Assembly: GCA_002344825.1 (NCBI GenBank) | Contig: DDUN01000038.1 | Coordinates: 21,061 to 85,060, forward strand | Reading direction: 5' to 3' | Length of the DNA stretch: 64,000 nt | Source of the DNA: Candidatus Multiplicimicrobium inquinatum | GTDB taxonomy: Bacteria > Omnitrophota > Omnitrophia > Omnitrophales > Aquincolibacteriaceae | Shown: in pieces, positions 6,189-22,178 of the stretch | Position numbering within the stretch: position 1 is the stretch's first letter | Layout of the letters: the number at the start of each line of letters is the position of its first letter | The notes under the pieces: generated by a model | Told to the model about the DNA's origin: nothing | What the model saw: the letters and a program-made list of their open reading frames with translations, nothing else | The model's database searches: none | Translations under genes and position numbers: made by a program

Positions 6189-6231
6189 CATGTTTTCCTC
6201 TGTGCCGAAGGCACAACCGGAGACGATGTAG

Positions 6232-8962: not shown

Positions 8963-9035
8963 GGCTCTGAGCGCACAGCGCTCAACCGCCGACGAGCAAC
9001 ACTATTTTTAAAGAATAAAGCAGAGGGTACAAAGA

Positions 9036-11513
9036 ATGGCTGACGAAAAGAATCTTTACGCGATGAATGAAAAAATCATTCCGATTGCAATCGAAGATGA
9101 AATGAAAAAATCGTACATCGATTATTCGATGTCGGTTATCGTGGGCCGTGCTTTGCCTGACGTCCGTGACGGACTCAAGCCGGTGCATCGCCGCATTTTG
9201 TTCGCGATGAACGAACTGGGCTTTGCCTATAACAAACCTTATAAAAAATCCGCGCGTATTGTGGGTGAAGTGCTCGGTAAATTTCACCCCCATGGCGATA
9301 CCGCCGTCTATGACACGCTTGTGCGTATGGTGCAGGACTTTTCTCTTCGTTATCCATTGATTGACGGACAGGGAAACTTCGGGTCCATCGACGGCGACCG
9401 CGCCGCGGCGATGCGTTATACCGAAGCGCGTTTGGCGCAAGTCTCTAACGAGCTTTTGGAAGACATCGACAAGAACACCGTTGATTTTGTTCCGAACTTT
9501 GACGAATCGCTGAAGGAGCCAACCGTGCTTCCTTCCCGTATTCCGAATTTGCTTGTGAACGGCTCCGCCGGTATTGCGGTGGGTATGGCAACGAACATTC
9601 CGCCGCATAATTTAAACGAAGTGGTCAGCGGTATTTTAGCGACCATCGAAAACCCCGATATCACCATTAAAGATTTGATGAAGCATGTGAAAGGGCCGGA
9701 CTTTCCGACCGCGGGAACGATTATGGGCCGGGACGGAATTCGCTCGGCTTATGAAACAGGTCGCGGCAAAGTTTTGATCCGCGCGAAGGCTGTGATTGAA
9801 TCAGGCCCCAAAAAAGAAGCCATCGTTATCACCGAAATTCCGTATCAGGTCAATAAAACCAATTTGATCGAATCGATCGTCGGTCTTGTTGAATCCAAAA
9901 AAGTCGAAGGCATTTCCGATATTCGCGATGAATCCGACCGTGACGGAATGCGCGTTGTTATCGAGCTGAAGCGTGACGCGAACGCTCAGGTTGTTTTGAA
10001 TCAGCTGTATAAACATACCCAAATGCAGCAGACGTTCGGCATTATTATGCTTTCGCTCGTGAAAGGGCAGCCGCGCGTTCTGAACTTGAAACAAATGATC
10101 GAATACTTCATTGATTTTCGCGTTGAAGTGATCATGAAGCGCACGAAGTTTGATCTTGAGAAAGCGGAAAAACGCGCCCATATCTTAGAGGGTTTGAAAA
10201 TCGCGGTAGATAACATCGACAAGATTATCAAGATCATCCGCGGCGCGAAAAACCCGGAAGATGCGAAAAATGAATTGATCAAACAATTCAAGCTCTCGGT
10301 GCTTCAGGCGCAGGCGATCTTAGAGTTGCAGCTCCAAAGATTAACCCAGCTTGAGCGGCATAAGATCGACGAAGAATACGCCGAGCTTCTCAAGAAAATC
10401 AGCGAATTGAAATCTATTTTGAAGAGCCGTCAAAAAGTTCTTCATATAATCAGCGAAGAATCCAAAGAGCTTGTTAAGAAAACCGGCGATGAGCGGCGCA
10501 CGCAAATTGTGGCCGCGGAAAAAGAAATCGACATCGAAGATTTGATTGTTGAAGAAGATGTTGTGATCACGCTTTCGCACGCAGGCTACATCAAGCGCAT
10601 TCCGGTTTCCTCTTACCGCAAGCAGAATCGCGGCGGCTCCGGCGTGAACGCGGCTGGCATGAAAGACGACGATGATTTCATCGAGCATTTGTTCCTTTGT
10701 TCAACGCATGAAACTATTTTGTTCTTCACTAACACGGGCCGTGTTTATTGGCGCAAGGCTTATGACATTCCGCAGGCCTCCCGTATCGCGAAGGGTAAAT
10801 CCATCGCGAATGTGTTGGCGCTGAATCCAACCGAAAAGATTCAAAGCTTCCTCAAGGTGAAAGAGTTTGATGATAAACGCTTTGTGGTCATGATTACGAA
10901 GAACGGTATTATCAAGAAGACGCGCCTTGTGCATTATTCACGTCCGCGCGCGGGCGGCGTGCAGGCGATTACGCTGCGCGACAAAGACGAGCTTGTTTCG
11001 TGCATGATTACCACCGGCGAAGACACGATTTTTATCGCGTCCCGCGAAGGTATGGCGATTCAGTTTAGCGAAAAAGACGCGCGTGAATTAGGCCGCACGG
11101 CATCCGGCGTGATGGGAATGCGCCTCGATAAAAAAGATTACGTGATCGCGGCTGAATTAACACAGCCCGAATCAACCGCGCTGACAGTTACCGAATCCGG
11201 TTACGGCAAGAAAACGTATTACAAAGAATACCGTCTTCAATCCCGCGGCGGCAAAGGTGTCATCAACGCTAATGTCACCGATAAAAACGGCAAAGTCGTG
11301 AATGTCATTACCGTAACCGAAGACGATGAAATTATCGTCATGACGGATAAGGGCATGGTTGTTCGCAGCGCGGTAAATCAGATCCGCACAACAAGCCGCA
11401 ATACTCAGGGCGTGCGTATTATCCGCCTGAAAGACGGCCATAAAGTTGTTTCCGCTGCGCGCGTGGTTGCCGGCGAAGATGACGGCGAAGCTGAGCTTGA
11501 TCTGACAAAATAA
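9036..11513 (+). CDS. gyrA: DNA gyrase subunit A.
   Basis: 825 aa. It contains …[26 protein letters not shown]… (the active-site Tyr region) and [10 protein letters not shown]. The C-terminal beta-pinwheel repeats include a GyrA-box-like QNRGGSGV. Confidence 0.97.
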
Positions 11514-11520
11514 TTTGTTC

Positions 11521-11556
11521 TGCGCCTGCGGCGCAACCATGGGGGCTTTTTATTTT
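11521..11556 (+). terminator. Possible terminator hairpin after gyrA.
   Basis: TGCGCC-TGC-GGCGCA hairpin at 11521-11535, followed 11 nt later by CTTTTTATTTT. The geometry is not ideal. Confidence 0.25.
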
Positions 11557-11610
11557 AGCTCCGGGCTTTGCTCGACCGCGGAAAAGCAATCTTAAACAGG
11601 AAAAGTTTGA

Positions 11611-11724
11611 ATGTTAGATTTAAAAAAATTACGCGAAACACCGAATATTTTTAAAACGGGCGTTGCCGCGCTGAAATATTTTGGCTCTGCGGATTCGCCG
11701 CAACCACGGAGCACATATGCTTGA
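11611..11724 (+). CDS. 37-codon upstream ORF whose first ~20 codons are a near-duplicate of the serS 5' end. It may be a leader peptide or a duplication relic.
   Basis: It translates MLDLKKLRETPNIFKTGVAALKYFGSADSPQPRSTYA*. The serS start reads MLDLKKLREAPDIYKAGVAS. Its TGA stop (11722-11724) overlaps serS codons 2-3 (ATGCTTGA). A purine-rich stretch lies upstream of its ATG. Confidence 0.4.
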   Translation: MLDLKKLRETPNIFKTGVAALKYFGSADSPQPRSTYA

Positions 11725-12997
11725 TTTGAAAAAACTCCGAGAAGCCCCTGATATCTACAAGGCAGGCGTTGCTTCCAAGTCTCCGAAAGCCGCGGAGATG
11801 ATCGATCAAATTCTTGAGTTGGATAAGGATCGCCGCAAATGGGTGGCCGAGGTGGAGGCTTTGAAAGCGGAGCGAAATAAGGCCAACGACCAAATTGCTG
11901 CCGCAAAGCGCTCCGGACAGCCCGCCGATGCGATTTTGACGGCGATGAAAGAGGCGTCCCAGAAAATCAAGGAATTTGATCAAAAAGTGGGTGATGTTGA
12001 CGCTAAAATAGGCTCAATCTTGTCCAATATCCCAAATATACCTCATAAAGACGTCCCGGTGGCACCTGGTGCAACTGGTAATAAAGTAGTTAAAACCTGG
12101 GGCGAGCCTAAAAAACTTGGCTTTGAAGGCAAAGACCATCTTGATTTGGGCAATGTCCTCGGCTGGATTTCGATGGAAACCGGCGCAAAAATTACCGGTG
12201 CCGGATTTCCGGTTTATTTTGGCGAAGGCGCGCGCCTTCAGCGCGCTTTGATTAATTTCATGCTCGATATGCATACACAAAAGCATGGGTACAAAGAAGC
12301 CTGGTCGCCCGCGATTGTAAACCGCGCGTCGATGATCGGCACGGGACAGGTTCCAAAAATGGAAGAAGATATGTATTCGCTGTATGAACCCGAGTCCGAA
12401 AAAAAGCACGGCGATTTTTTTCTGATTCCGACCGCTGAAGTTCCGATTACCAATTTTTTCCGCGACGATACTTTAACCGAAGAGCAGCTGCCGGTTTTGA
12501 TGACAGGCTACACGCCTTGCTTCCGCCGCGAAGCGGGAACTTACGGAAAAGATACGCGCGGGCTTTCACGCGTGCATCAATTTGATAAAGTCGAGCTTGT
12601 AAAAATCGCGCACCCGGACAATTCGGAGGAAGAGCTTGAAACTTTGCTGGCGAACGCGGAAGCCGTGTTGCAGGCGCTCGAATTGCCGTACCGTGTTTTG
12701 CTTTTGGGAAGCGGGGACATGAGTTTTTCTGCGGCAAAATGTTATGACCTTGAAGTTTGGGCGCCCGTAAGCCAAAAATGGTTTGAAGTTTCCAGCTGCA
12801 GTTTGTTTGGCGATTTTCAGGCGCGTCGAGCGAACATCCGCTTTCGGCGCAAAGAAAATAACAAAATTGATTTTTGCCATACCTTAAACGGTTCGGGCTT
12901 GGCTTTGCCGCGCATTGTGATCGCGCTGCTTGAAAATTTTCAAACCGCCGAAGGTAAGATCAATTTTCCCAAGGCATTGAGCAAGTATCTATCTTAA
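11717..12997 (+). CDS. serS: Serine--tRNA ligase.
   Basis: The sequence MLDLKKLREAPD…coiled-coil arm…FRREAGTYGKDTRGLSRVHQFDKVELV…TLNGSGLALPR aligns motif-for-motif with class II SerS (compare E. coli MLDPNLLRNEPD…[27 protein letters not shown]…TLNGSGLAVGR). The track ORF begins at a TTG at 11681, but the SerS N-terminus matches the ATG at 11717. Confidence 0.96.
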   Translation: MLDLKKLREAPDIYKAGVASKSPKAAEMIDQILELDKDRRKWVAEVEALKAERNKANDQIAAAKRSGQPADAILTAMKEASQKIKEFDQKVGDVDAKIGSILSNIPNIPHKDVPVAPGATGNKVVKTWGEPKKLGFEGKDHLDLGNVLGWISMETGAKITGAGFPVYFGEGARLQRALINFMLDMHTQKHGYKEAWSPAIVNRASMIGTGQVPKMEEDMYSLYEPESEKKHGDFFLIPTAEVPITNFFRDDTLTEEQLPVLMTGYTPCFRREAGTYGKDTRGLSRVHQFDKVELVKIAHPDNSEEELETLLANAEAVLQALELPYRVLLLGSGDMSFSAAKCYDLEVWAPVSQKWFEVSSCSLFGDFQARRANIRFRRKENNKIDFCHTLNGSGLALPRIVIALLENFQTAEGKINFPKALSKYLS

Positions 12998-13047
12998 TTC
13001 TTGCCACGGCAAAAACATTTTTATAAGCTAGCGCTTCGTCAAAGCTG

Positions 13048-13067
13048 AAATGACGCGCGCGTCATTT
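13048..13067 (+). terminator. Perfect 20-nt palindrome downstream of serS. It may be a terminator or a protein-binding site.
   Basis: AAATGACGCGCGCGTCATTT. There is no clean downstream T-run, so its function is uncertain. Confidence 0.3.
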
Positions 13068-13141
13068 AAAATAATACACAGCGCTGTGCCGAATCTGCTT
13101 AAAGAATAAATAGTGATTCGGCCTAACGTTTCGTTTTTCGC

Positions 13142-13233
13142 GGAGGGGTCGCATAGCCCGGCTTAGTGCGGCGGTTTGCTAAACCGCTGTGGCTCGCAAG
13201 AGCTACCGGGGGTTCAAATCCCCCCCCCTCCGC
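13142..13233 (+). tRNA. tRNA-Ser (anticodon GCT), class II with a long variable arm.
   Basis: GGAGGGG acceptor stem pairing with CCCCTCC. Anticodon stem-loop is GCGGT-TTGCTAA-ACCGC. Variable arm is GTGGCTCGCAAGAGCTAC. T-arm is GGGGGTTCAAATCCCCC. The discriminator is G. Confidence 0.85.
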
Positions 13234-13410
13234 AGTTTTATTTCCGCTCTGTGCGCATTGCGCACAACCGCTCCGGTTCCGCAAGATCAAACTGCCCTAT
13301 TGTGCTTGTCCCACACCCGCCCGGTGCGCGCACAACAATCCTCACCGTTTTTAGGAAGCATTATAAAGCGGCGGGGGGTTGCCCCCTTGAAATCTTGCAA
13401 AAATCACACT

Positions 13411-14697: not shown

Positions 14698-14719
14698 CAG
14701 TTATAATTTTGCTCGTCGC

Positions 14720-14806
14720 GGAGAGGTGGCAGAGCGGTTGAATGCGGCAGTCTTGAAAACTGTTATACCCGCAAGGGTATCGGGGGTTCGAATCCCTCCC
14801 TCTCCG
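14720..14806 (+). tRNA. tRNA-Ser (anticodon TGA), class II.
   Basis: GGAGAGG/CCTCTCC acceptor stem. Anticodon stem-loop is GCAGT-CTTGAAA-ACTGT. Long variable arm is TATACCCGCAAGGGTATC. T-arm is GGGGGTTCGAATCCCTC. The discriminator is G. Confidence 0.85.
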
Positions 14807-14924
14807 TTCTTAAAGATGCCGGCGATGGCGGCGTTACGCTCCTTCAAATTTTTTCAACGCACATTTTCAGTGCGCCTCAAAAATTTTCGGTCGCAAGCCT
14901 TGCCCTCACCGGCATCTTTAAGAA
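14807..14924. mobile_element. MITE-like element Y, 118 bp, bounded by perfect 16-bp terminal inverted repeats. It is inserted exactly at the 3' end of tRNA-Ser(TGA).
   Basis: TTCTTAAAGATGCCGG (14807-14822) pairs with CCGGCATCTTTAAGAA (14909-14924). The interior shares a core (…CGCCTCAAAAATTTTCGGTCGCAAGCCTTGCCC…) with the second copy at 22480-22598. No coding capacity is evident. Confidence 0.5.
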
Positions 14925-22086: not shown

Positions 22087-22178
22087 GGAGAGGTCGCATA
22101 GCCTGGTCTAGTGCGCACGCCTGGAAAGTGTGTGAACCTGAAAGGGTTCCGTGGGTTCGAATCCCACCCTCTCCGCCA
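22087..22178 (+). tRNA. tRNA-Ser (anticodon GGA), class II, with CCA encoded.
   Basis: GGAGAGG/CCTCTCC acceptor stem. Anticodon stem-loop is CACGC-CTGGAAA-GTGTG (one G·U pair). Long variable arm is AACCTGAAAGGGTTCC. T-arm is GTGGGTTCGAATCCCAC. Discriminator G plus CCA. Confidence 0.8.

Follow-up and report, generated by a model that had tools for sequence, protein, structure and literature searches.

Duplication of the serS start region in Omnitrophota: a conserved upstream open reading frame with a likely role in translational coupling

The gene for seryl-tRNA synthetase (serS; its product, SerRS) begins twice in Candidatus Multiplicimicrobium inquinatum, a member of the Omnitrophota. The stretch of its genome analysed here (the window: 64,000 nucleotides (nt) of contig DDUN01000038.1, positions 21,061 to 85,060, numbered below from its first letter) carries a second copy of the serS start region directly upstream of the gene. 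This copy forms an upstream open reading frame (uORF) whose stop codon overlaps the beginning of serS. The uORF is real, conserved, and duplication-born, and it overlaps an essential aminoacyl-tRNA synthetase (aaRS) gene. Its most likely role is that of a translational-coupling relay; that it was kept for coupling to serS is probable, though by no means certain.

Nucleotides 1–57 of serS (11717–11773) are repeated at 11611–11667, a period of 106 nt. The repeat, which the initial annotation of this DNA had proposed, is real and stands far above chance: the copies agree at 40/57 nucleotides and 15/19 amino acids, whereas 2000 shuffles of the 400 nt upstream yielded no ungapped match better than 31/57. 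No second gene start with a comparable upstream copy was found in the 64-kb window; serS is the sole case.

The first copy of serS codons 1–19/20 (11611–11670, + strand; repeat family D1) opens the uORF (11611–11724, + strand), whose coordinates had been given exactly. It comprises 37 codons between ATG 11611 and TGA 11722–11724, specifies the peptide MLDLKKLRETPNIFKTGVAALKYFGSADSPQPRSTYA, and is open in 5/5 genomes that carry the duplication. The TGA (+ strand) lies within serS codons 2 and 3, inside ATGCTTGA, and the resulting start/stop spacing of −8 relative to the serS ATG (11717) is identical in 5/5 duplicated genomes. Upstream of the uORF lies a Shine-Dalgarno (SD) sequence, AGGA (11598–11601, + strand; 9 nt to ATG 11611), which is the ancestral serS ribosome-binding site: at equal distance, AGG(A/T)A precedes the uORF in 5/5 duplicated genomes and serS itself in single-copy relatives.

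The serS gene proper (11717–12997, + strand) encodes 426 amino acids, with Pfam domains Seryl_tRNA_N and tRNA-synt_2b, and opens with the second repeat copy (57 nt). Its own SD, GGAG (11708–11711, + strand), lies 5 nt from the ATG and has a predicted pairing partner, CUCU, at 11685–11688. The true start is ATG 11717, because the Seryl_tRNA_N profile aligns from residue 1 of that reading. TTG 11681 was rejected as a serS start on the same alignment; the six-frame list does, as was pointed out, merge a TTG-initiated (11681) extension with serS. The downstream copy predicts the SerRS N-terminus M-LDLKKLREAPDIYK (the form with APDIYKAGVAS), whereas use of the upstream copy would give the form with ETPNIFKTGVAS. 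The upstream copy continues with GCC GCG (Ala19-Ala20), matching outgroup serS genes (GVAAKS), whereas serS proper in the window has Ser20; by ancestry, the copy probably spans 20 codons. Its codons were also described as AT-richer than those of serS. This holds in the window (GC 0.33 versus 0.46) but not in the related loci L162 and L003 (0.46 versus 0.46 and 0.44).

A 49-nt spacer separates the copies (11668–11716, + strand). It consists of duplicated gyrA 3′ end and intergenic sequence, encodes the uORF tail (codons 20–37), and shares 76% identity over 29 nt with the stretch right after the gyrA stop codon (11514–11542; repeat family D3). Because the spacer is homologous to this gyrA-proximal element, the repeated unit can be delimited: the last bases of gyrA; an intercistronic hairpin element; an SD sequence; and serS codons 1–19/20. 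The duplication junction reads GTTGCCGCGCTGAAA. The period is of the form 3n+1, and a TGA in the uORF frame is hidden within the Leu-Asp codons CTT GAT; therefore, the upstream copy reads as a 37-codon ORF. Its frame crosses the duplicated hairpin element and the serS SD and ends 5 nt beyond the serS AUG. The best explanation for this arrangement is a 106-base-pair (bp) tandem duplication in the ancestor of a small Omnitrophota clade.

Comparison loci, 176 in all, came from a genome-collection scan, a protein search, and contig look-ups. The window's SerRS falls in Candidatus Omnitrophota. Four other Omnitrophota assemblies share the duplicated structure: L001, L161, and L162 (95–97% SerRS amino acid identity), and L003 (89%). 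In all four, the uORF has 37 codons and the ATG-to-ATG distance is exactly 106 nt. The spacer between gyrA and the uORF, by contrast, varies from 53 to 105 nt across the duplicated genomes and accumulates indels freely. Gene callers annotated the uORF in L161 and L162, and a protein-collection search with the padded uORF peptide returned two clusters only (P0121 and P0122). A metagenome scan with SerRS gave no match above 69% identity, hence no further duplicated genomes. The expectation that relatives would conserve the uORF is thus borne out in part: it is kept as an ORF in four, but about ten others, comparably close to the window (81–93% SerRS identity), have a single serS start.

In the SerRS tree, the window forms a clade with L161, L162, and L001; L003 pairs with single-copy L002; and the others form a near-polytomy. 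Ser20 in serS proper is common to the window clade, L003, and L002, and the upstream copy keeps the outgroup Ala20. Consequently, the duplication arose before these lineages diverged. The single serS of L002 (2539–2720), sister of L003, has 18 upstream-type codons followed by downstream-type codon 19 GCT and Ser20. This mosaic looks like a recombinational collapse of the duplication within GGTGTTGC.

Two further loci show short ORFs between gyrA and serS. In L163 (1446–1508), a 20-codon ORF, MLDLQIFFALGFAQSRGCNA, opens with the first four codons of serS just 1 nt beyond the gyrA stop codon. It runs through the hairpin element and, like the 37-codon uORF, overlaps serS by terminating within ATGCTTGA; it is an independent, second architecture of a uORF derived from the serS start. 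In L001 (2918–2986), besides the 37-codon uORF, ATGTTAGAAG... abuts the gyrA stop (TAAATG), giving a 22-codon ORF across the first hairpin element. This arrangement suggests a chain of short ORFs between the two genes.

The uORF has been retained over considerable divergence. Synonymous divergence (dS) of serS between duplicated genomes is 0.85–2.0. In neutral simulations on a tree scaled to serS dS, the probability that 5/5 genomes keep the start codon and 19 open codons is 2 × 10⁻⁴, and at half that rate 5 × 10⁻³. The upstream copy also evolves like coding sequence. In codons 2–19, the proportion of synonymous differences (pS) is 0.577 versus a background of 0.598, and that of nonsynonymous differences (pN) is 0.097, for a pN/pS of 0.17; variable columns by codon position number 7/4/11. 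The residues that vary (10, 12, 13, 14, and 16) are those that vary in genuine SerRS N-termini. These substitution patterns indicate that the uORF is maintained by selection and that only its N-terminal half behaves like protein.

Pairs of coupled overlapping ORFs, such as trpE-trpD and MS2 coat-lysis, are well described (reviewed in PMC12548453, PMC6728339). The −8 spacing (NTGNNTGA) is among three enriched overlap motifs (the −1, −4, and −8 classes) of coupled genes, and RNA unfolding and reinitiation are both accepted models for coupling (PMC12548453). The uORF-serS pair resembles such systems in its co-directional ORFs; in the upstream ORF's own SD and ATG; in the −8 spacing; and in a downstream SD whose predicted pairing partner lies in the path of the upstream ribosome. 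It differs in that the uORF is no independent gene, but a copy of the first 19–20 serS codons that reads through a duplicated intergenic element.

From the repeat anatomy, its homology and conservation, and the signatures of selection, we infer that the uORF is translated and that serS depends on it. The downstream copy is the working serS start, and the upstream copy has retained the ancestral serS ribosome-binding site and ATG. In the proposed mechanism, ribosomes would enter at the former start and, while translating the uORF, melt a helix between GCUCU, the pyrimidine-rich 5′ flank of the hairpin element, and GGAG, the serS SD. They would terminate at the −8 overlap, and serS would be translated by reinitiating ribosomes, by new ribosomes on the exposed SD, or by both. 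In single-copy relatives, the ribosome terminating on gyrA would open the same element.

Predicted folds bear on the central step of this mechanism. In the local minimum free energy structure, the serS SD pairs with CUCU at 11685–11688 in 5/5 genomes (−11.2 to −16.4 kcal/mol), and this fold is also the centroid in L161, L162, and L003. The 5′ strand of the helix corresponds to uORF codons 25–26, which the translating ribosome would traverse.

The hairpin element recurs along the operon. Its motif flanks, GCTCTG...CAACC, occur on the + strand after dnaN (6198), gyrB (8965), gyrA (11518), in the spacer between the serS copies (11685), and after the tRNA-Ser gene (13247). The corresponding hairpins (all + strand) span 6198–6230, 8965–8990, 11514–11540, 11551–11580, 11681–11707, and 13247–13272, and the element is found also in L161–L176, occupying corresponding positions in relatives. 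The exact pattern occurs three times, versus 0.21 expected. Family members take the form ATTTTTGCTCTG, a 4–7-bp stem, and CAACCGC, and each immediately follows a stop codon or a tRNA 3′ end; in single-copy relatives, the element has its place just downstream of the gyrA stop. Compensatory changes affect 7/9 pairs in an alignment of 19 copies. No Rfam family matches the element.

Three copies surround the uORF start. Copy 1 (11514–11540, + strand; TTTGTTC-TGCGCC-tgc-GGCGCA-ACC) directly follows the gyrA stop. A degenerate second hairpin (11551–11580, + strand, motif at 11559; TTTTAGCTC-CGGGC-ttt-GCTCG-ACCGCGG) lies in the gyrA-uORF spacer, and this two-hairpin architecture is present also in L161 and L002. 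Copy 3 (11681–11707, + strand; TTGGCTC-TGCGG-attcg-CCGCA-ACCAC) lies inside the uORF, with its 5′ flank GCTCT at 11684–11688. A two-tier design, with the inner covarying hairpin nested in an outer helix between the pyrimidine flank and an SD, is evident at dnaN→dciA in the window and at gyrA→serS in L176 and L163. At each of these sites, the pyrimidine-rich flank lies 4–10 nt after the upstream stop codon. We suggest that the element couples translation by occluding an SD, and regard it as new in that Rfam does not contain it. The two-tier hairpin appears to occlude the SD of the next cistron throughout the dnaN-dciA-gyrB-gyrA-serS operon of these Omnitrophota, and it would offer a way to study translational coupling from sequence in a phylum without cultured model organisms. 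If coupling is indeed the role of the uORF, then a gene gave rise to a bacterial uORF in one step, by partial tandem duplication of the region around its start, and an old ribosome-binding site was reused as a ribosome feeder for an essential aaRS.

Several observations weigh against coupling. Because serS has its own canonical SD (GGAG, 5 nt to the ATG), it may not need a second source of ribosomes. The predicted structures are not more stable than those of shuffled sequences (z, +0.8 to −1.2), and accessibility of the serS SD is 0.37 versus 0.48 in single-copy relatives, a slight drop only. The uORF tail (codons 20–37) has a pN/pS of about 1 at low divergence and thus displays no peptide constraint. 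The duplication appears dispensable, because L002 lost it and about ten close relatives do without it. The selection arguments presuppose vertical descent of the duplication and draw on five genomes. Finally, coupling accounts for the open frame, but not for the amino acid constraint on codons 1–19 or for the behaviour of the second unit, described next.

The second unit, comprising the spacer and serS codons 1–19, shows 97% identity across four genomes and 91% with L003, amid flanking synonymous sites that are saturated. Among the four close genomes, third positions are invariant in 19/19 of serS codons 1–19 (P ~2 × 10⁻⁸ for that block), in 11/20 of codons 20–39, in 5/20 of codons 40–59, and in a fraction of 0.395 of codons 60–426. 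An apparent sharp 3′ boundary of conservation at codon 19/20 has been partly withdrawn, given this graded fall and the similar gyrA 5′ end. In single-copy relatives, the serS 5′ end is not frozen (~5/10 third-position matches). Compared with these relatives, the downstream copy matches at third positions less often than background, falling to 2.7/10 in codons 11–20. It looks as though the downstream copy was recoded after the duplication, possibly to lower repeat identity. Together, the amino acid constraint on an orphaned N-terminus and the frozen, recoded second copy could point to something less ordinary than coupling.

The first 40 codons of gyrA (9036–9155) provide a useful comparison. 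Among the window, L001, and L003, third positions match at 10, 9, 10, and 9 per 10 codons, against a background fraction of 0.64; versus single-copy L176 the freeze is weaker, with 7, 7, 7, and 7. Because the gyrA start is frozen comparably, these genomes seem to hold their true gene starts under strong nucleotide constraint. Nor does a large structured RNA account for the frozen unit: folds of 11590–11790 and 11665–11780 revealed nothing beyond shuffles. A candidate long-range helix between the spacer and serS codons 7–13 was dropped, since L003 substitutions break it. Two kinds of element were also rejected as the source of the repeat: a multi-copy mobile cassette resembling miniature inverted-repeat transposable elements or repetitive extragenic palindromes, for there are no further copies of the unit and only the internal hairpin motif repeats; and a diversity-generating retroelement with the downstream copy as template repeat and the upstream copy as variable repeat, for the differences are not limited to A positions.

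How, then, might the duplication be explained otherwise? It might be a tolerated relic: a neutral scar in which the uORF is incidental at most and serS is expressed from its own SD. The canonical serS SD, the unconstrained uORF tail, the collapse in L002, the many relatives without a duplication, and the lack of significant RNA structure all fit this idea, as does a radical L4Q change in L003 at an otherwise invariant SerRS position. Yet the ATG, the SD, the 106-nt period, and the open frame have been kept in five genomes at dS of at least 0.85, while the neighbouring gyrA-uORF spacer gains indels freely, and the neutral probabilities and the pN/pS of codons 1–19 given above speak for selection. 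The retention statistics therefore disfavour a relic, provided that descent was vertical, and we regard it as rather unlikely. Of the three readings offered in the initial annotation, which overall is partly supported, a duplication relic with retained coupling is the best supported; the word relic, however, is too weak, since selection holds the frame open. Selection might instead act on the product, as a functional microprotein of 37 amino acids or of only the first 19 residues, a copy of the SerRS N-terminal helix that possibly acts on SerRS or tRNA-Ser. The constraint on codons 1–19 and their SerRS-like set of variable positions are as expected, but the tail is free to vary; the peptide has no Pfam hit; L002 lost the duplication without obvious consequence; and pN in the upstream copy is about fourfold that of serS codons 20–60 in the same genomes (0.097 versus 0.026), hence constraint is relaxed. 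A microprotein is accordingly unlikely. A third possibility puts the novelty downstream: the second 106-nt unit would be a recent, horizontally spread cassette, inserted after serS codon 19 with its own SD, ATG, and 19 codons, which implies that the upstream copy was the real serS start until recently. This would explain the near identity of the unit amid saturated sites and its recoding relative to all relatives; it fits the patchy distribution on the tree, and the excess pN of the upstream copy (~0.07) roughly equals the divergence of the unit (~0.06). Moreover, two mutations in the spacer hairpin, seen in the window and L003, break pairs and are not compensatory. Against a cassette, a BLAST search of the window and the 176 loci found the unit once in the window and, over five loci, solely at this site; a search of phages and plasmids gave no match; no gene for a recombinase or endonuclease lies in the vicinity; the spacer has its homologue in the gyrA-serS intergenic element of the clade itself; Ala20 upstream versus Ser20 downstream bespeaks an old vertical event; divergence of the unit follows the nonsynonymous divergence (dN) of serS (3–4 versus 9 differences); and gyrA is similarly frozen without a duplication. 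We consider a cassette distinctly unlikely, although these data are compatible with nucleotide constraint and with a recent horizontal transfer of the unit alike. At integration sites, as in icd with prophage e14 or phage 21, a displaced gene end likewise lies beside a functional homologous copy that differs at synonymous positions. Here, unlike icd, the copies lie 49 nt apart, the spacer is homologous to host intergenic sequence, neither an integrase nor a mobile element is present, and the duplication concerns the 5′ end.

Two remaining alternatives give the uORF ribosome a more exotic task. In recoding, initiation at 11611 would still lead to SerRS, through a bypass of 106 nt or a +1 shift at GCU UGA U. 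A bypass would take off at GGC-GUU-GCC and land on the matching GGC-GUU-GCU 106 nt downstream. If true, it would account at once for SerRS-type purifying selection on codons 1–19, the unconstrained tail, and the nucleotide-frozen block between the two GGYGTTGC sequences. As bypassing demands of its take-off and landing codons, GGY GTT GCN closes both copies in 5/5 genomes; such matching codons are trivial, however, because duplication produces them. The known case is T4 gene 60, with a 50-nt gap, a stop directly after the take-off codon, and a take-off stem-loop (PMC7026636; bioRxiv 10.1101/2022.08.31.505936). The serS insert shares with gene 60 a short conserved insert in an essential gene, matching flanking codons, a hairpin, and an SD-like sequence. 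It differs in that the putative take-off codon is followed by GCG CTG AAA and not by a stop; in that the gap is twice the known length (PMC7026636); and in that the insert holds a complete start site, a perfect SD-ATG that trivially explains SerRS synthesis. The candidate take-off hairpin (11659–11698) is not conserved, being broken in L161. As to frameshifting, a longer SerRS N-terminus by a −1 shift, as had been suggested, is untenable: passage from the uORF to the serS frame needs +1, and a serS-frame TGA at 11672–11674 closes everything upstream, so that a fusion could include no more than the final 47 nt of the uORF. A +1 frame at UGA U would indeed read GAU, serS codon 3. The prfB frameshift relies on an SD-like stimulator 3 nt upstream of the shift codon, P-site re-pairing, and an in-frame stop. 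The uORF shares the in-frame UGA, but the P-site codon GCU becomes CUU in +1 and does not re-pair, and the SD lies 9 nt from the codon rather than at the stimulatory spacing. Recoding as a whole is thus very unlikely, and bypassing, at twice any known length, even less probable.

The other alternative is a leader peptide that senses serine or tRNA-Ser through attenuation or ribosome stalling. Leader peptides of aaRS and amino acid operons (the pheST leader, trpL, and hisL) likewise are short ORFs immediately upstream of the gene on the same transcript, and three Ser codons (26, 29, and 34) are conserved in the uORF. This conservation arises because the nucleotides of the hairpin and SD are conserved. 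Unlike the classical leaders, the uORF has no run of cognate codons and its stop overlaps the structural gene start; Ser accounts for 3/37 codons (8%), non-adjacent, all in the unconstrained tail and none in codons 1–25. No terminator-like hairpin with a U-tract lies between the uORF and serS, the promoter and terminator scan giving counts that match shuffles (a weak terminator hit, 5 versus 4.6 expected), and folds of 11590–11790 contain no alternative terminator/antiterminator pair of the kind that had been envisaged. A search with Rfam cmscan (E ≤ 10; 11300–13400) placed only tRNA-Ser above the gathering score, with no T-box or other family upstream of serS. Neither ARAGORN nor Rfam detected a tRNA-like fold in 11500–11780, such as a thrS-type tRNA-mimic operator, although weak mimicry could escape both. 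The suggestion of a serine-sensing leader therefore fails on both defining features, the codon cluster and the attenuator, and we hold it to be exceedingly improbable.

Genes in this part of the window are ordered, on the + strand: dnaA, dnaN, dciA, gyrB, gyrA, serS, and tRNA-Ser(GCU). The gyrA gene (9036–11513, + strand; Pfam DNA_topoisoIV and DNA_gyraseA_C) ends in codons (..GAGCTTGATCTGACAAAATAA) that resemble the serS start as well as the beginning of the duplicated unit (repeat families D3 and D4). Its 3′ end (11482–11513; ELDLTK*) is 72% identical over 29 nt to the serS SD and start (11706–11734; ATGCTTGATTTGAAAAAA, MLDLKK), and the GyrA proteins of Omnitrophota conserve an (E/Q)L(D/E)L tail. 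This likeness may have served as a source of microhomology for repeated duplications at this site. The tRNA-Ser(GCU) gene (13142–13233, + strand; ARAGORN and Rfam) begins 145 nt after the serS stop. It is one of three tRNA-Ser genes within 10 kb downstream of serS: GCU, 13142–13233; UGA, 14719–14807; and GGA, 22087–22178.

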